Part shown: piece by piece, positions 4,009 through 58,342 of the stretch
Position numbering within the stretch: the first letter of the stretch is position 1
Layout: each line of letters begins with the position of its first letter
IMG/VR virus record: IMGVR_UViG_3300002091_000031
Coordinates: 973-64,972 of that record
DNA length: 64,000 nt
Source: a virus
Reading direction: 5' to 3' (one strand)
Position numbers and translations under genes: made by a program
The notes under the pieces: generated by a model
Seen by the model: the letters and a program-made list of their open reading frames with translations, nothing else
Databases searched by the model: none
Told to the model about the DNA's origin: nothing

Positions 4009-4917
4009 ATGAGCGAACAAAACAATGCGTTAATGGCCATGTTAGGTCAGTACGAAAACAACACAAAACCAAAAGCTAAGAAAGCGGTTTCTAAGTACGA
4101 TGAAAAGAATTACTTCGGTACTAAATTAACTGACAAGCAAAATTCAGCGTCTAAGAACGTTAGAATCTTAGCAACTAAAGATGGTACCTCACCATTCGTT
4201 GAGGTTTACGGCCACACAATCCAAGTTGATGGTGATTGGAAGACTTTCATTTGTCTTCAAAAAGAAAAAAACCAACCATGCCCATTCTGTGAAGCGAATG
4301 ATGTGCTTAGAGCTTCTTCTGCTGAAGCTGACAAAGAACTTGCTAAGAAGTACAACGCTAAGTTGATGTACATCGTTAAGGTAATTGACAGAGAAGATGA
4401 AGACCATGGACCTAAGTTCTGGAGATTTAATCACGACTACCGTAAGGAAGGTGTAATTGACAAAATTTATGGTGTTTTACAAGCCATCAAGAAGGACATT
4501 ACCCACGCACAAACTGGTAGGGATTTGGCTATTATGATTGGTAGAAATGCTAATCGTAAATCGGTTGTAACATCCATTACACCACTTGACCCATCACCAT
4601 TGAGTGAAGATGAAGCAAAAGCTGCCGCTTGGTTAGCTGATGAACAAACTTGGGAAGATGTATTCGGTGTTAAGACTTACGAGTATCTTGAAATCATCGT
4701 TAAAGGTGGTGTTCCAGTTTACGACAAGGAAGCTAAAAAGTATGTAGACAGCCGTTTGGTTGGTGTACAAACAGAAACTGCTAAGGCAGACACTGAAATC
4801 AGTCTTGGGGTATCTAACGTAAAGCCAAACGTTACAGTTGCTGCAACTAATTTAGTTGAACCAACACCTGCGGCACCAGCTGATGAAGCAGAAGCTGAAG
4901 ATGACCTTCCCTTCTAA
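4009..4917 (+). CDS. Single-stranded DNA-binding protein, T4 gp32-like
   Basis: Zn motif H...C...CPFC, KVIDRED and GRDL motifs, acidic tail ending DDLPF. Confidence 0.85.
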   Translation: MSEQNNALMAMLGQYENNTKPKAKKAVSKYDEKNYFGTKLTDKQNSASKNVRILATKDGTSPFVEVYGHTIQVDGDWKTFICLQKEKNQPCPFCEANDVLRASSAEADKELAKKYNAKLMYIVKVIDREDEDHGPKFWRFNHDYRKEGVIDKIYGVLQAIKKDITHAQTGRDLAIMIGRNANRKSVVTSITPLDPSPLSEDEAKAAAWLADEQTWEDVFGVKTYEYLEIIVKGGVPVYDKEAKKYVDSRLVGVQTETAKADTEISLGVSNVKPNVTVAATNLVEPTPAAPADEAEAEDDLPF

Positions 4918-4943
4918 GGTGGTAGAACCAAAACATTTTAATA

Positions 4944-4971
4944 TAATGGGTAGTGATTTTGCTACCCATTA
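4944..4971 (+). terminator. 10-bp hairpin after the SSB gene (terminator or processing/stability hairpin; no U-tract)
   Basis: TAATGGGTAG-N8-CTACCCATTA. Confidence 0.5.
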
Positions 4972-5008
4972 CTATTAAGAAAATAACATAGATAAAAACA
5001 AAACCAAA

Positions 5009-6112
5009 ATGGCGAAAAAACCAGAAAAGAAAATTATACCTAAACAAGAATTTGACCTAGATTCATTTACAAGTAGTGAAGGTTTAAATACACAAACTAA
5101 AGATAAAGAGTTAACTTGGGTACCGCTTTCGAAAGCATGGCATGACTCATTAAAATTACCAGGTTTTCCTAGAGGCTTTGTAAGCTTAGTTAGGGGTTAT
5201 TCAAATACGGGTAAATCAACAGCTTTTTATGAAGCTATTGTAGGTGCTCAACAAATAGGTGACTTACCAGTTGTAATTGAAACTGAGGGTAACTGGAACA
5301 CGACACACGCTAAACAAATAGGTGTGAAATTTAAAGAAAAGGTTAACTTAGAAACTGGTGAGGTTGAAGAGGTTCCAGATGGGTTTATTTTAATGAAAAG
5401 TCGTGACTTATATGAAAAATATAAGTGTTACGACCACAAGGATAGTAAGATGACAACAAAACCAACAAGAGGTGAACCTGTTATTGAAGATGTAGCTCTT
5501 TTTATTTCTGAGGTTTTAAAGAAACAAGAAGATGGTTTAATACCAAGAAACATTGTATTCCTTTGGGATTCTATTGGTACACTTAATTGTTATAAATCCG
5601 CTTGTTCAAGTACAAGTAATAACATGTGGAATGCTGGTGCCATGGGTGTGTTTCAAGCCATAGTAAACTTTAAAATTCCTTCTAGTCGTGCCGTTGACAG
5701 TGAGTATACAAATACTTTAATTTGTGTTCAGAAGATATGGTTGGATAGTATGAATGGTACAGTTATTAAACACAAAGGTGGTGAATTTATGTTCTTTAAT
5801 TCACGTATTATAGTACATATCGGTGGTATTCTAACTCACGGTACTAGTAAGTTGACAGCTACAGCGTTAGGGCAGAATTTCCAATATGGTACACAAGCTA
5901 AGATTAGATGTGAAAAGAACCATGTAACAGGTATTGAACGTAACGGTGAGATTGCATCAACACCACATGGTTATGTTAACCCAGATGAGCTAGATGCTTA
6001 CAAGAAAGAAAAGCGACAGTTTATTCATGATTCATTAAATGTTAGTTATGAAGCTGAAGTTGAATTTACTGAAATTGAGGGTACCTTTGAAGGTGAGGAT
6101 ACTAGAGAATAG
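5009..6112 (+). CDS. uvsX: RecA/UvsX-like recombinase
   Basis: Walker A GYSNTGKST, Walker B FLWDSIG, KNH motif near the C-terminus; adjacent to SSB. Confidence 0.85.
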   Translation: MAKKPEKKIIPKQEFDLDSFTSSEGLNTQTKDKELTWVPLSKAWHDSLKLPGFPRGFVSLVRGYSNTGKSTAFYEAIVGAQQIGDLPVVIETEGNWNTTHAKQIGVKFKEKVNLETGEVEEVPDGFILMKSRDLYEKYKCYDHKDSKMTTKPTRGEPVIEDVALFISEVLKKQEDGLIPRNIVFLWDSIGTLNCYKSACSSTSNNMWNAGAMGVFQAIVNFKIPSSRAVDSEYTNTLICVQKIWLDSMNGTVIKHKGGEFMFFNSRIIVHIGGILTHGTSKLTATALGQNFQYGTQAKIRCEKNHVTGIERNGEIASTPHGYVNPDELDAYKKEKRQFIHDSLNVSYEAEVEFTEIEGTFEGEDTRE

Positions 6113-51354: not shown

Positions 51355-51386
51355 TTTGCAAAACACAAAAATAGTTCGTATATTTG
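51355..51386 (+). promoter_or_regulatory. Bacteroidota-type promoter for the DUF2828 gene
   Basis: TTTG-N20-TATATTTG. Confidence 0.8.
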
Positions 51387-51421
51387 CACTCAATTAAATA
51401 AAACAATTAAAATTTACTTTT

Positions 51422-52858
51422 ATGGCAACAAGTTTATTAAGAGCAATGCAAACTAAAGACACATTTACCGCTAATGGTATGTCTACTAATAGTTCCTCAC
51501 TTAACCACTGTGTTAATTTATTTTTCCAAATAGGTGCAATGAGAGGTAAAGATAAGCAATTACTTATCAATACATTCGTTAAAGCTTTTAACGAAGATGC
51601 CTTAACAGCATTAAGGTTGTTATTTTGGGCTCGTGATATTAGAGGCGGTGCTGGTGAAAGACAAGTATTTAGAGACTTAATCAAATATTTGGCTAATAAT
51701 CATTCAGAAACTCTTGGTAAGAACTTAGTTCATATCCCAGAATTCGGACGTTGGGATGACGTGTTACAATTAATTGGTACTAAGCTTGAAAACCAAGCTC
51801 TTGCGCTTATTAAAACTGGCCTTGATGAAAAGAATGGTCTTTGTGCTAAGTGGATGCCACGTCCAAACGTTGGTAACAGAGAAAGGAAGCGTGAAGCTAA
51901 TGTTCTTAGGAACTACTTACGCCTTTCTCCAAAGGATTACAGAAAGAAACTTGTTGAACTTTCAAATACTGTAGAACAATTAATGTGTTCTAAGAACTGG
52001 ACTGCTATCGAGTACTCTAAGTTGCCATCAAAAGCAATGTCAGATTACATGAAGGCGTTCTCTAAGAATGACTTAGCTCGTTTCCAAGCTTACTTGACTT
52101 CCCTTGAAAAAGGTGAAACTAAGATTAATGCTGGTGCTGTATACCCATATGACATTATCAAGAACTTGAACTATGGTTCTAAGGATGGTGCTGACCAGCA
52201 ATGGAAAGCATTACCAAACTACATGTTAGGTAATAATGAAAGATTGTTACCAGTTGTTGACACATCTGGTTCTATGTCATGTTCTGCTGGTGGAAACGCT
52301 TTAGTTAGATGTATTGACGTTGCTATCTCTTTAGGTATGTATATCTCTGAAAGGAATGTAGGTATCTTTAAGGATGCATTCGTAACATTCTCAACTAATC
52401 CAAAGTTACAGATTTTATCTGGTAAGTTATCTGAAAGATATAATCAATTGGCTCGTGCTGAATGGCATGGTAGTACAAATTTGGAAGCAACATTTAACCT
52501 TATCTTAGGTCAAGCTAAGAGGCATAGTGTTCCTGTTGAAGAAATGCCAACAATGGTATTGATATTATCAGATATGCAATTCAATCCAAGTGTTGTAGGT
52601 GGTTGGAATCCAACTGCTCAAGAAATGATAAGAGCACAATATGCTGCTGCTGGGTACACAATGCCTAAGATAGTATATTGGAACCTTAACGCTAAGAATA
52701 CTGATAGTCCAGTTCATTTTGATGAAAAAGGAACTGCGTTAGTATCTGGTTTCAGCCCTTCATTGTTGAAAAACTTGTTGGCTGGTAAGGACCTTACACC
52801 AATCAGTATGATGAACGAAGTTGTTAATAGCGAACGTTATCAAAAGATTACAATATAA
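51422..52858 (+). CDS. DUF2828-family helical-repeat plus vWA protein (Ro60/TROVE-like architecture)
   Basis: LFWARDIRGGAGERQVFR, EFGRWDD, AKWMPR, INAGAVYPYD, MIDAS VDTSGSM, STN, ILSDMQF, VYWNL and LVSGFSP. Confidence 0.82.
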   Translation: MATSLLRAMQTKDTFTANGMSTNSSSLNHCVNLFFQIGAMRGKDKQLLINTFVKAFNEDALTALRLLFWARDIRGGAGERQVFRDLIKYLANNHSETLGKNLVHIPEFGRWDDVLQLIGTKLENQALALIKTGLDEKNGLCAKWMPRPNVGNRERKREANVLRNYLRLSPKDYRKKLVELSNTVEQLMCSKNWTAIEYSKLPSKAMSDYMKAFSKNDLARFQAYLTSLEKGETKINAGAVYPYDIIKNLNYGSKDGADQQWKALPNYMLGNNERLLPVVDTSGSMSCSAGGNALVRCIDVAISLGMYISERNVGIFKDAFVTFSTNPKLQILSGKLSERYNQLARAEWHGSTNLEATFNLILGQAKRHSVPVEEMPTMVLILSDMQFNPSVVGGWNPTAQEMIRAQYAAAGYTMPKIVYWNLNAKNTDSPVHFDEKGTALVSGFSPSLLKNLLAGKDLTPISMMNEVVNSERYQKITI

Positions 52859-52869
52859 TACCTGCATAA

Positions 52870-53024
52870 AAGATGTATACTGCAATTTACAAATCTAAGA
52901 AAAATGTTCAAAATTGCTAAACCCTTGGGCCTTTTAAAATTGTTTCAGCCCTTTCAAATTGTTTTATTTAATTAATTTGAAACAATCTTCACAACAGAGT
53001 TTGAAGTAAATACTCCCACATCTT
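52870..53024 (+). ncRNA. Candidate structured ncRNA (copy A of the RTWC-N-GCAA closing-stem family)
   Basis: AAGATGT(52870-76)/ACATCTT(53018-24) closing stem, followed on the 5' side by ATACTGCAA; internal hairpin TTTCAAATT/AATTTGAAA; lies between the DUF2828 stop and its terminator. Confidence 0.5.
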
Positions 53025-53041
53025 GGCAAGGTTATAAAAAG

Positions 53042-53068
53042 AAGTCGTAATTTATTACGGCTTTTTTT
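53042..53068 (+). terminator. Intrinsic terminator
   Basis: AAGTCGTAA-TTTA-TTACGGCTT followed by TTTTT. Confidence 0.85.
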
Positions 53069-53117
53069 GTTTATTGTATTTACACTTTAAAAAAATTTGT
53101 CTAATTTTAAATAAAAA

Positions 53118-53303
53118 ATGACAGTAGTAGTAAAACCAATTGATGAGTACAGAAGTAAAGTTTTTAAAGGCCGAACAATTACTCAGTATATCGTTTATTT
53201 AATGATAAACGGTCAACCAATAAAAGCTGAATTAGCGTTAGGTGATTCAGAAAGAGACAGTTTAATAGCTGTTTTTCTAAAAGAAGCAAACAATAAATCA
53301 TGA
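53118..53303 (+). CDS. Hypothetical protein
   Basis: 61 aa, A-rich start, ATGA overlap with the next gene. Confidence 0.6.
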   Translation: MTVVVKPIDEYRSKVFKGRTITQYIVYLMINGQPIKAELALGDSERDSLIAVFLKEANNKS

Positions 53304-55613: not shown

Positions 55614-56642
55614 ATGGCTAAAAAGGATTTTTACGAGGTTTTAGGTGTTACAAATACCGCCACACCAGATGAAATAAAGAAAGCTTATCGTAAACTTGCT
55701 AAAACAAATCACCCAGATGTTGGTGGTGATGCCGAAGCGTTTAAAGAAATTGCTGAAGCTTATGAAGTTTTATCCGACAAGGATAAAAAGGATAAGTATG
55801 ATAAATTTGGTATGTCAGGCTTTGATAATAGCGTTGATAGCGGTGGGGGGTATGATGCAATGGCTGATTTTTTTAAACGTGCTGGATTTACTCAAAGGGG
55901 ACAACGAATGAATAAGGGTTCAAATTTAACTCTTAATATAAAGTTAACTCTTGAGGAAATTTTCACTGGCGTTACTAAGAAATTCACATATAAGAAAAGG
56001 GGTAATTGTACCGATTGTAACTCAACAGGTGGGCATGGTAGTACTAATTGTTCCCAATGCGGTGGTACAGGTATGAGAGTTGAAGTAGTAAAAACCCCAT
56101 TTGCTGTTATACATAATCAATATACATGCGATATTTGCGATGGTAATGGAACCGTATATCAATCTAAATGTGAAACATGTAAAGGCGAAGGTACTGTTGA
56201 CACTAATGAAACGATTGATGTTAATGTTCCAGCTGGTATTGTTGATTCTATGCAGTTCTTAATGTCTGGTAAGGGTCATTCAACTAGGAACGGTATATCG
56301 GGTGATTTAATCATTAATATAACTGAATTGAAGCATGATAAGTTTGTCAGGGCTGGTAATGATTTGCGTGTAAAACTTAAACTAAACTATCACCAATTAA
56401 TCTTAGGTGATAAAGTTGAAACTACGACTATAGAAGGTACTAAAATAAGAGTTACCGTACCTGAATTTAGTAATGTAAATAATACCCTTAGAATCCCTAA
56501 GAAAGGAATGACTCAATTGAATAATACTAACCGTGGCGATATGATATTCGAACTTGAACTTTCTGTTGATAAAGAAATGTCTGCTGAAGAATTGGAATTA
56601 GTTAAAAAAATTAAGGAACTTAAAGAAAATATTGCATCTTAG
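55614..56642 (+). CDS. dnaJ: DnaJ co-chaperone (J domain, four CxxCxGxG motifs, C-terminal domain)
   Basis: DFYEVLGV...AYRKLA...HPD; CTDC, CSQC, CDIC and CETC. Confidence 0.93.
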   Translation: MAKKDFYEVLGVTNTATPDEIKKAYRKLAKTNHPDVGGDAEAFKEIAEAYEVLSDKDKKDKYDKFGMSGFDNSVDSGGGYDAMADFFKRAGFTQRGQRMNKGSNLTLNIKLTLEEIFTGVTKKFTYKKRGNCTDCNSTGGHGSTNCSQCGGTGMRVEVVKTPFAVIHNQYTCDICDGNGTVYQSKCETCKGEGTVDTNETIDVNVPAGIVDSMQFLMSGKGHSTRNGISGDLIINITELKHDKFVRAGNDLRVKLKLNYHQLILGDKVETTTIEGTKIRVTVPEFSNVNNTLRIPKKGMTQLNNTNRGDMIFELELSVDKEMSAEELELVKKIKELKENIAS

Positions 56643-56662
56643 TGATTTTCTTAGTATATTTG
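56632..56662 (+). promoter_or_regulatory. Bacteroidota-type promoter for the clpP operon
   Basis: TTG-N20-TATATTTG. Confidence 0.7.
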
Positions 56663-56684
56663 CTATAATTAAAACGAAAACAAT

Positions 56685-57092
56685 ATGGCAGAGTATCAAG
56701 AAGTATTTCCAGACCACCAAGAGCTATTCACTAATTTAATAGCTGAAATTGATTCACTTAACAGTGTTAACATTAAGGTGTTAGGTAACAATGAATTAAA
56801 GGAAGTAACTAAAATTATTAAGGCGAATGACCTTTTAAGACACGAAAGTGCAAACGATGTTTACATCATTCTAAATGAAACGATTTTCGAACCGTTAAAT
56901 GAAGAACAAAAAGCTATGGTTGTTGAAGAAACTGTAGCACAAATCTACTTTGATGCTGAAAAGGATAAAATATCCATTATTAAGCCTGACTTTACCACTT
57001 TTAGTGGGTTATTAGTTAAGTATGGACATCAAAAGTGTTTAGACCTTAAAGCTCTTATCAGATTGATGTACGAATCACAAGGAGATAACTAA
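56685..57092 (+). CDS. Hypothetical protein, weakly reminiscent of phage metallopeptidase-like proteins without an HExxH motif
   Basis: 135 aa; EETVAQI sits where HELxH would be expected. Confidence 0.55.
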   Translation: MAEYQEVFPDHQELFTNLIAEIDSLNSVNIKVLGNNELKEVTKIIKANDLLRHESANDVYIILNETIFEPLNEEQKAMVVEETVAQIYFDAEKDKISIIKPDFTTFSGLLVKYGHQKCLDLKALIRLMYESQGDN

Positions 57093-57093
57093 G

Positions 57094-57345
57094 ATGACTA
57101 GAGAAGAAATTGAAGAAATTAATCCTGAGGCATTATTATGTGATGGGTTTGATGAAGCGATAATCGGCATGGCTGAGAGGATAAATCTTGGCCCTGTCGT
57201 AGCTTACTCAGTGGAAAAAATCATTGGTACTCTAATGAGTAGAGATGAAATGTCTTATGAAGATGCGTATGAGTACTACAATTTTAATATTGTCGGTGCT
57301 TGGATGGGTGATAACACACCAGTATTTATAACTACAGAAGCATGA
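57094..57345 (+). CDS. Conserved-looking small phage protein
   Basis: DGFDEAIIG...AYSVEKI...EY..FNI.GAWMG..TP. Confidence 0.7.
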   Translation: MTREEIEEINPEALLCDGFDEAIIGMAERINLGPVVAYSVEKIIGTLMSRDEMSYEDAYEYYNFNIVGAWMGDNTPVFITTEA

Positions 57346-57635
57346 GTAAAAAGAAAATTGAAAGAGAAATAATTAAAATTAACCAAGAAAATTGGGGTGA
57401 TTTTACAGGTCATGGTCCTTGGGAATTAAATGGTGAAATTTATAATTTTATTGAAGATTACCCTAGTCGAGATTGCGATGGTGAATGTCACAACGTAGTT
57501 GTTGAACGTCAGTCAGATAAAAAATTATTTAGATTCACTTGGCAATATTCTCATGGAAGTGGTAATTATTACTTTGATGATGATGAATTAGAAGAGGTTT
57601 TTTTAAAAATAGTAACAACTAGAAAATACGAATAA
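57342..57635 (+). CDS. Hypothetical protein
   Basis: ATGA-coupled 97-aa ORF. Confidence 0.65.
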   Translation: MSKKKIEREIIKINQENWGDFTGHGPWELNGEIYNFIEDYPSRDCDGECHNVVVERQSDKKLFRFTWQYSHGSGNYYFDDDELEEVFLKIVTTRKYE

Positions 57636-58342
57636 TGATAAGAACAGATTTTAACACTTATGCCAAAAAACATTTTGGTGTAACCGATACCCAATTTCGT
57701 GATTGGGAAGTTTTACAGACACAGATATACAATAATGTGATGGTTACTGGGTCTTTAACACCATATGTACTAGAAGAACGTGAATTGAGGGTAACTCAAA
57801 TTGACATCTTCTCAAGAATGATGTTAGATAGAATTCTTTGGTTGGCTGGTCCAGTTAATGATAGAATGTCAACAGTTGTTCAAGCACAATTAATGTTCTT
57901 GGATAACCAAGAGAGTAAAGACATCACGATGTACGTTGACACACCAGGTGGTTCTGTAAAATCAGGTCTATCCATCGTTGATACTATGGAGTATGTATCC
58001 TCAGACATTATAACTATTAATACAGGTATGGCCGCAAGTATGGGTAGTATCTTATTGGGTGCTGGAACAAAAGGTAAGAGGTATTCATTACCCTCAAGTA
58101 GAGTAATGTTACACCAAGTCTCTGCTGGTACCGAAGGTAATATCCAAGATATGAGGGTTTCAATGGTGGAAAGTGAGAAGTATAACGACCACTTATTCAA
58201 AATGCTTGCTAGTTATACTGGAAAAACTGCTGAAGAAGTAATGAAAGATGCTGAGAGAGATTTCTGGTTAACAGCTGATGAAGCTTTAGCGTATGGAATC
58301 ATTGATGGTATAGTTAAAAACAAACCTAAAGGTAAAAAATAA
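57635..58342 (+). CDS. clpP: ATP-dependent Clp protease proteolytic subunit
   Basis: DIFSR...DRI, TPGGSV, catalytic AASMG, MLHQ, ERDFW and YGIID. Confidence 0.93.
   Translation: MIRTDFNTYAKKHFGVTDTQFRDWEVLQTQIYNNVMVTGSLTPYVLEERELRVTQIDIFSRMMLDRILWLAGPVNDRMSTVVQAQLMFLDNQESKDITMYVDTPGGSVKSGLSIVDTMEYVSSDIITINTGMAASMGSILLGAGTKGKRYSLPSSRVMLHQVSAGTEGNIQDMRVSMVESEKYNDHLFKMLASYTGKTAEEVMKDAERDFWLTADEALAYGIIDGIVKNKPKGKK

Follow-up and report, generated by a model that had tools for sequence, protein, structure and literature searches.

A Ro60-like DUF2828 phage protein and the family of handle RNAs encoded with it: a candidate Ro/Y-RNA-like ribonucleoprotein

Ro60/Y-RNA particles constitute a classic, still poorly understood RNA-surveillance system. 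The question addressed here is whether a DUF2828 gene of a virus and the structured RNA encoded immediately behind it specify a particle of the same kind. The locus is located in a stretch of 64,000 nucleotides (positions 973 to 64,972 of the IMG/VR record IMGVR_UViG_3300002091_000031), called the window hereafter, which is AT-rich and forms part of a 65.5-kb viral contig from freshwater metagenomes. On the + strand, a promoter-like site (51355-51386) fitting TTTG-N20-TATATTTG is followed by a coding sequence (CDS) of 478 amino acids (aa), a 1-base gap, a structured element and an intrinsic terminator (53037-53068) with a 14-pair stem, a 4-nt loop and a T run. A preliminary description, made from the letters of the DNA, had placed the promoter, the DUF2828-vWA CDS, the closing stem and the terminator at these positions, where all four were found again, and had proposed a divergent Ro-like ribonucleoprotein with its cognate RNA encoded immediately downstream. 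This proposal is supported by the sequence comparisons and structure predictions reported below.

The CDS (51422-52858, +) matches two Pfam families well above their cut-offs, DUF2828 (PF11443; E 3.7e-38, 131.9 bits against a cut-off of 29) and the vWA-like DUF7788 (PF25043; E 9.4e-45, 153 bits against 27.1), and, over its full length, the PHROGs family phrog_850, annotated as 'RNA-binding protein' (residues 7-474, E 4.3e-154). The family is represented by 6,703 cluster representatives at E <= 0.001 and by 711 isolate phage records, and some mycobacteriophage records label their member "Ro-like RNA binding protein". The structure was modelled with AlphaFold2 from 118 homologs (mean predicted local distance difference test score 94.2) and displays a helical ring joined to a vWA domain with a metal-ion-dependent adhesion site (MIDAS). 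The divergent Ro60-like protein of the preliminary description was recovered when this model was submitted to Foldseek: the top 13 PDB matches are all Ro60/TROVE structures, aligned over their full length with E values of 1.5e-9 to 2.5e-6 and template modelling scores of 0.54-0.62, and a structure search of AFDB Swiss-Prot agrees with the Ro60 match. Alignment with VIA-align gave a Z of 22.4 for Xenopus Ro60 (root-mean-square deviation 3.9 Å over 411 residues), Z of 13-22 over 375-412 residues for the PDB Ro60 entries overall and Z of 16-17 for the Ro60 of Thermus phage phiLo, against about 11 or less for proteins sharing only the vWA domain. The residues of the MIDAS signature DxSxS...T...D (D280, S282, S284, T352 and D384) are invariant among the 118 homologs. 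Judging from the model, the protein is probably a distant homolog of Ro60 and probably works like it. It nevertheless stands outside the TROVE family as Pfam defines TROVE, and the link is undetectable by sequence: a phmmer search of the protein against the PDB returned nothing, and the profile built from the 118 sequences attains no better than E 0.1 for Ro60, within the MIDAS region.

The element behind the gene, designated RNA A, has a size of about 165 nt and is the long form of an RNA family described below. Its full extent, including an outer stem P1 located by applying RNAduplex to the flanks, is 52860-53032 (+). The P1 arms, ACCTGC (52860-52865) and GCAAGGT (53026-53032), pair weakly in the clade of the window. 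Inside them, the 5' strand AAGATGT (52870-52876) of the closing helix P2 pairs with ACATCTT (53018-53024), which is followed by a conserved G (the whole at 53018-53025), and the unpaired motif ATACTGCAA (52877-52885; family consensus W-U-W-C-W-G-C-A-A) follows the 5' strand directly. The 7-bp stem and the motif next to it are thus present as had been announced. The helix P2, the unpaired motif and the 3' G are referred to collectively as the handle. A 212-nt stretch containing the element folds at -43 kcal/mol (z -2.93), a value equalled by 1 of 200 shuffled sequences.

In order to examine the conservation of RNA A, its sequence was compared by BLAST with 80 IMG/VR loci encoding homologs of 57-96% protein identity. 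Both ends of the RNA are kept at the same relative position behind the homologous genes, and the conserved order from 5' to 3' reads P1, an asymmetric internal loop, the 7-bp P2, A/U-U-A/U-C-N-G-C-A-A, an A-rich linker, a 3' domain, the P2 return and G. The outer stem P1 varies in sequence between loci and is missing from some of them. The closing helix, the unpaired WWCNGCAA, the 3' G and two covarying pseudoknots are kept in 30 distinct related loci. In a plain MAFFT alignment (A1), P2 is paired in 95.5% of cases with compensatory changes at four of its seven pairs, against 33-55% for slid controls; the C, G, C, A and A of the handle motif and the G after P2 are invariant in the same alignment. 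The pairing does not depend on the alignment alone: when the two arms were cut out of the 30 distinct relatives by sequence anchors only, cognate 5' and 3' arms paired at -14.5 kcal/mol against -7.9 kcal/mol for non-cognate arms, and the cognate arm ranked first in 17 of the 30 cases. The 3' flanks of homologous genes, chosen beforehand as the place where the proposal could be refuted, therefore covary.

The 3' domain of RNA A is predicted to consist of two consecutive H-type pseudoknots. The first (52927-52986, +) is formed by helix a, GGGC (52927-52930) with GCCC (52948-52951), and helix b, ATTGTTTCA (52939-52947) with TGAAACAAT (52978-52986); the second (52987-53015, +) is formed by helix c, CTTC (52987-52990) with GAAG (53003-53006), and helix d, GAGT (52997-53000) with ACTC (53012-53015). 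Statistics on these helices were obtained from an alignment (A5) of 31 sequences made with R2, a covariance model of the long form. Helix b, which is part of model R2, shows changes on both sides at all six of its pairs. Helices a and d lie outside the model: d is 97.6% paired, with GC 24 and AU 7 at one pair and UG 17, UA 8 and CG 4 at another, and a is 80.6% paired, with AU 10, UA 10, CG 1 and UG 1 at its third pair. In helix d the window copy has GAGT/ACTC in place of the consensus GGGU/GCCC. The preliminary description had seen in this region an internal 9-bp hairpin, and the complementary segments do exist (TTTCAAATT at 52952-52960 and AATTTGAAA at 52974-52982), but the hairpin is not conserved. 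Since it overlaps the 3' strand of helix b and is broken already in the closest relative (L001), it is replaced here by the pseudoknot pairing ATTGTTTCA/TGAAACAAT. What this window contributes is the long form, with a covarying double-pseudoknot body, joined to the transcription unit of the gene itself, at its 3' end. Two particular features of the long form were observed in addition. In the minimum-energy fold, GCAATTT (52882-52888) pairs with AAATTGC (52911-52917), an arrangement that would mask the GCAA of the handle; this pairing is limited to the close relatives of the window (L001-L003) and could be an alternative state or a product of chance. In another locus (L016), about 1.2 kb (4431-5600) separates the DUF2828 gene from the long-form RNA, which is still present at 5602-5688.

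Two short RNAs with the same handle were found in the window, which therefore contains three of them. RNA B (61094-61152, +; GGAATCA-GTTCAGCAA...TGATTCC-G) is the first RNA of a tRNA operon preceded by a promoter-like site at 61025-61056, and RNA C (61377-61427, +; AGAATGA-ATACCGCAA...TCATTCT-G) is the last RNA of the same operon, followed by a terminator at 61436-61461. B measures 58 nt and C 50 nt. Model R1, a covariance model of short-form RNAs, was built from seeds picked by a scan demanding a perfect stem. The 100% pairing of these seeds is circular because of this selection and is not counted, so that only the location of the RNAs and independent matches are considered; in the same manner, copy B scores 52.8 bits with R1, yet is itself one of its seeds. 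Model R1 misses RNA A because of the 130-nt body of the latter, for which reason the long form needed its own model.

When the results of R1, R2, the strict handle scan and inspection are combined, about 76 of the 80 metagenomic loci carry handle RNAs beside the DUF2828 gene and on its strand; of the four or so that remain, two are cut off by contig ends. Nearly all matches of the strict scan in the 80 loci are on the strand of the gene, 6-400 nt downstream, and the 29 matches of R1 in the same loci (535 kb) are without exception on that strand, 0-500 nt downstream. The association extends to isolate phages. In a search of whole records, R1 matched all six of the non-seed phages with a DUF2828 gene, the best matches lying at most 300 nt from the gene in five of them (A511, Kingsolomon, 6ec, PJN02 and BUCT-ZZ01), and none of the five DUF2828-negative phages (T4, T5, SPO1, phiKZ and phage K). 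The handle motif is present in copies B and C and in every isolate phage examined, and the family adjoins DUF2828 genes in Felix O1-type, Campylobacter, Listeria, Staphylococcus, Bacillus, Synechococcus and mycobacterial phages. Several copies may be found in one genome: four among the tRNAs of Felixounavirus ECML-1, two upstream of the gene in Campylobacter phage CP30A, three upstream in Listeria phage A511, and three downstream in both Staphylococcus phage 6ec and mycobacteriophage Kingsolomon; the DUF2828 protein is gp57 in A511 and PHAGE6E_17 in 6ec. The idea that the gene comes with an RNA partner of its own is strengthened by this distribution, as the RNA family accompanies DUF2828 in phages whose hosts belong to many phyla and is missing from the control phages.

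The bodies enclosed by the handle appear to vary widely: there may be none, a hairpin, a permuted tRNA-like fold or, in RNA A, the double pseudoknot. In Synechococcus phage BUCT-ZZ01 (L089 2760-3010) and Citrobacter phage Ci1 (L083 3388-3622), the handle is located inside tRNA-like scaffolds. These RNAs have acceptor, D and T arms, and the place of the anticodon arm is taken by the handle hairpin with AATTCTGCAA or CTACAGCAA; the layout corresponds to a circularly permuted joining of handle and tRNA body, and one of the RNAs is annotated as a tRNA pseudogene. In Kingsolomon, an unannotated RNA (L086 2740-2880) occupies a 380-nt 'empty' gap behind the gene labelled 'Ro-like RNA binding protein' and is flanked by two short handle RNAs.

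The resemblance to the Ro60 (Rsr)-Y RNA system, known from bacterial Rsr with YrlA, YrlB or Yrn1 and from a TROVE-type mycobacteriophage Ro (PMC4201824), concerns both partners. The ring with vWA/MIDAS fold is common to the proteins, and the Ro60 fold pairs habitually with adjacent stem-closed RNAs (PMC4201824). As with Rsr, partner-like RNAs are encoded beside the gene, often several per genome; as in Y RNAs, a conserved stem unites the two RNA ends and carries a conserved motif at its top; and as in YrlA, the body is modular and variable, with a permuted tRNA-like domain in some members. Unlike Rsr, the DUF2828 protein has no TROVE sequence signature, and unlike YrlA, the body of RNA A is a double pseudoknot and not a tRNA mimic. 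The survey of YrlA by Chen et al. (2014) covered only genomes annotated with TROVE proteins (PMC4201824). No member of the handle family attains the gathering score of YrlA (RF02553), and RNA A has no match to Y_RNA (RF00019) or YrlA at E <= 10; at the B/C locus the single match to YrlA (16.4 bits) covers the tRNAs at 61255-61353, outside B and C. The middle RNA of Kingsolomon comes nearest with 37.9 bits against a YrlA threshold of 69, the match being restricted to the T-arm, acceptor and D-arm body in the permuted order of YrlA. It closes with a handle, GGACCCC-CACAGCAA...GGGGTCC-AG, in place of the YrlA stem, and to judge by these sequences it has the tRNA-like body in common with YrlA and a swapped module on the presumed protein side. 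With Rfam 15, no family reaches its gathering score on any copy of the handle RNAs, and only tRNA and tmRNA do so over the window and sets of 20 and 10 loci. Permissive Rfam matches of RNA A consisted of small RNA look-alikes driven by the terminator and were rejected. The long-form RNA was also compared by blastn to 28 Gb of E. coli genomes in search of rRNA or tRNA mimicry; nothing was found, a result that is uninformative at that database size. No description of the handle RNAs was found in the open full-text literature on DUF2828, Ro-like proteins and phage YrlA, subscription journals lying outside this coverage.

Two phage proteins permit a closer comparison. The Ro60 of phage phiLo, with its RNAs Yrl1 and Yrl2, has been proposed to act on an RNA-decay factor of the host (Hu et al. 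2025, PMC12135203; PDB 9kop, 9l5y). It is likewise a phage-encoded protein of Ro60 fold with small RNAs adjacent, and it is the top Foldseek match of our model (E 1.5e-9). Unlike the window protein, it is a TROVE-domain protein whose RNAs were picked by the CGAA motif in that study; the identity between the two is 16-17%, and the VIA-align Z is 16.7 as compared to 22.4 for Xenopus Ro60. The second protein, gp130 of the Felixounavirus Bas63, was noted to have a Ro60-like fold and reported to counter the Ppl defence in the PhageMaP preprint, whose authors surmised that Y RNAs might be among the annotated tRNAs (PMC11482910). Its gene, bas63_0130, matches PF11443 and thus belongs to the same family as the window protein, with which the Felixounavirus homologs share 40% identity over 96% of the query. 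It is located directly upstream of a tRNA array, and three matches of R1, at 82070-82140, 82237-82298 and 82692-82763 of MZ501086, fall in the unannotated gaps between those tRNAs. These handle RNAs of the gaps, as opposed to the annotated tRNAs that it discusses, are undescribed in the preprint (PMC11482910). In comparison with Bas63, the window represents a freshwater phage, probably of a Bacteroidota host, with a long pseudoknotted form. One of the gaps deserves a remark: in Bas63 (MZ501086, 82748-82900; L099 2749-2901), an opposite-strand open reading frame (ORF) of 50 aa, bas63_0137, overlaps a strong handle-RNA match (82692-82763, +), and this ORF call may be spurious.

We consider it reasonably probable, at about 65%, that the DUF2828/DUF7788 protein and the handle RNA form a Ro/Y-RNA-like ribonucleoprotein. 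The protein would bind the handle, i.e. the 7-bp helix with the unpaired CNGCAA, in the manner in which Ro60 contacts the conserved Y-RNA stem, and the particle would display the body or tether another factor, with a putative action in RNA metabolism or host defence during infection. RNA A would most likely be made on the transcript of the gene, from the promoter at 51355 to the terminator at 53037, and then be freed by processing, and RNAs B and C would be made from the tRNA operon 8 kb downstream. Co-transcription of the CDS and RNA A is plausible, a view taken only because no promoter motif was detected between them in the scan of the window with the TTTG-type pattern. If such particles exist, they would represent a second and much larger phage branch of Ro60/Y-RNA particles with an RNA signature of its own, in which, as the window illustrates, the body can be an elaborate double pseudoknot instead of a tRNA mimic. 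With the handle RNAs, concrete candidates would be at hand for the RNA partner still missing for gp130, a reported anti-defence protein, and a likely role would be given to gaps without annotation in the tRNA arrays of well-studied phages, among them Felix O1-type phages, A511 and 6ec.

A number of observations weigh against this interpretation. No Pfam match to TROVE (PF05731) was obtained at E <= 0.1 in the CDS (51422-52858). The handle, composed of a helix, WWCNGCAA and G, is not the Ro-binding bulged helix with a GNCGAA/CGAA motif that characterizes Y RNAs (GNCGAA type as defined in PMC4201824 and PMC12135203). A terminator-like hairpin is found between the CDS and the RNA in many relatives, which is a caveat for co-transcription. 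The sole evidence for a transcript is weak: metatranscriptome X19 contains three contigs of read length from a 90-95% relative, lying over the CDS and, in one case, over 52867-53019, at a depth of 2-4 and with no ends defined, for which DNA carry-over is possible; metatranscriptome X20 covers part of the CDS only. In the case of Bas63, plaques formed again on the Ppl strain when gp130 alone was supplied, whether by a plasmid or by T7 (PMC11482910), so that the phage's own handle RNAs are not needed for the anti-Ppl activity. Finally, as handle RNAs are co-localised with tRNA clusters, their link to the protein could be indirect.

The last point leads to an alternative that we regard as rather unlikely, namely that the handle RNAs are autonomous stable RNAs of a tRNA/translation island, serving possibly as decoys or processing modules for a host or phage RNase or a tRNA-targeting defence nuclease, and that the DUF2828 gene is found nearby by virtue of sharing the island. 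B and C do lie inside a tRNA operon, handle RNAs alternate with tRNAs in Felix O1-type phages and are built into tRNA-like scaffolds in BUCT-ZZ01 and Ci1, and tRNAs are found near the DUF2828 gene in CP30A, A511, PJN02 and Kingsolomon; the activity of gp130 against Ppl without handle RNAs (PMC11482910) is in agreement with this alternative as well. In A511, 6ec, CP30A, Kingsolomon and most metagenomic loci, however, the RNAs abut the DUF2828 gene and not tRNAs. Neither DUF2828 nor a handle match is present in T4, T5, SPO1 and phage K, and T4, T5 and SPO1 are presumed by us to carry tRNA genes. A shared island accounts for the tRNA neighbours, but neither for the tight adjacency to the gene where tRNAs lie elsewhere nor for the absence from T4, T5 and SPO1, and the known pairing of the Ro60 fold with adjacent stem-closed RNAs (PMC4201824) also argues for a partnership with the protein.

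It is very unlikely, in our estimation, that RNA A is instead a cis-acting element in the untranslated region of the DUF2828 mRNA, acting as an autoregulatory site or 3' stabiliser. Its position would suit such a role, as it begins 2 nt past the stop codon, extends to the terminator and is not separated from the CDS by a promoter motif, and in A511 and CP30A handle RNAs are found in the 5' leader of the gene. Such a role is difficult to reconcile with handle copies situated 8 kb from the gene in the window and between tRNAs in other phages, with up to four copies in tandem, with the terminator-like hairpin that separates CDS and RNA in many relatives, or with the retention of the RNA in L016 despite a 1.2-kb insertion after the gene. 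The possibility that the element is a fortuitous fold of AT-rich intergenic DNA beside a terminator is refuted by the comparative data: dozens of divergent loci agree in sequence conservation, covariation and enrichment in position, even though such DNA yields many 7-bp stems and about 3.7 matches to the loose handle pattern are expected by chance in 65 kb.

A resemblance of another order was encountered in Dictyostelium. In Class I RNAs, a short stem brings the two ends together, its 5' strand is adjoined by an 11-nt motif, the rest of the sequence varies, and the 3' end carries CUGU (PMC7919456); these RNAs are eukaryotic, reported to be restricted to Dictyostelia, and bind Rnp1A, an RRM protein (Kjellin et al. 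2021, PMC7919456). Four proteins that bind Class I RNAs are reported. The consensus of the corresponding Rfam family RF01414, GaUcuC-CUUACAGCAAU...GagAuC-UG, has the same architecture and nearly the same handle, and full-length matches to it were obtained for copy B (21.4 bits) and for RNAs of A511 (23.1 and 19.6 bits), all of them below the gathering score of 41.5 bits. With 58 and 50 nt, B and C are also similar in size to Class I RNAs (about 42-65 nt), unlike RNA A, which is three times longer. Among the matches of the AFDB Swiss-Prot search there is no DUF2828 protein from Dictyostelium, a result that proves nothing, and a protein atlas search gave only viral DUF2828 clusters and is uninformative on eukaryotes. 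One may speculate that the handle, understood here as the terminal helix with a UUACAGCAA-type motif and a 3' UG, serves for docking in an ancient second branch of Ro/Y-RNA particles. Phage DUF2828 proteins would use it to present exchangeable RNA bodies, a double pseudoknot in the window and permuted tRNAs elsewhere, as decoys or tethers against RNA-directed or nuclease defences of the host, and the Class I RNAs would be eukaryotic members of the RNA family, but we regard this extension as decidedly unlikely. Were it correct, a DUF2828-type protein partner would be predicted for Class I RNAs, and a testable lead on their function would be provided.

The promoter-like site in front of the Ro60-like gene is one of a series. 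The pattern TTTG-N17-21-TAnnTTTG occurs 14 times in the window as compared to 4.0 +/- 2.0 in shuffled sequences, none of which (0 of 100) reaches 14. Its commonest version, the longer shared form CGTATATTTG, precedes other units of the + strand including the tmRNA and the tRNA operons. Sites of the type TTTG-N20-(C/T)GTATATTTG are encountered on the + strand before genes and stable-RNA units between 33960 and 62508 of the window (e.g. 53728, 55562, 59630, 60026, 61025, 61467 and 62477). The TTTG-N20 site is read here as a Bacteroidota-type -33/-7 promoter, which is an assumption of ours, and its recurrence suggests a transcription signal of a host of this type; the virus is probably a freshwater phage of a Bacteroidota host. 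Another motif, TTTACACTTT, shows no enrichment inside the window, although it recurs past the terminator in related loci. At 53079-53091, 10-20 nt past the terminator of RNA A, lies a conserved box, TTTACAC(T/A)(T/A)T, which is present in 22 of 58 distinct flanks (that of the window and those of 21 other related loci) and has no enrichment elsewhere in the window. With letters resembling TAnnTTTG about 20 nt beyond it, this box is probably the promoter of the next small gene, a 61-aa ORF at 53118. Further downstream, the window encodes DnaJ (55614-56642) and ClpP (57635-58342) in the region 55614-59622, and the region 60116-63649 contains a tmRNA (60116-60476) and a cluster of tRNAs with several irregular members, among them a 101-nt tRNA identified with Rfam (63076-63176) and a tRNA with an undetermined anticodon identified with ARAGORN (63480-63566).

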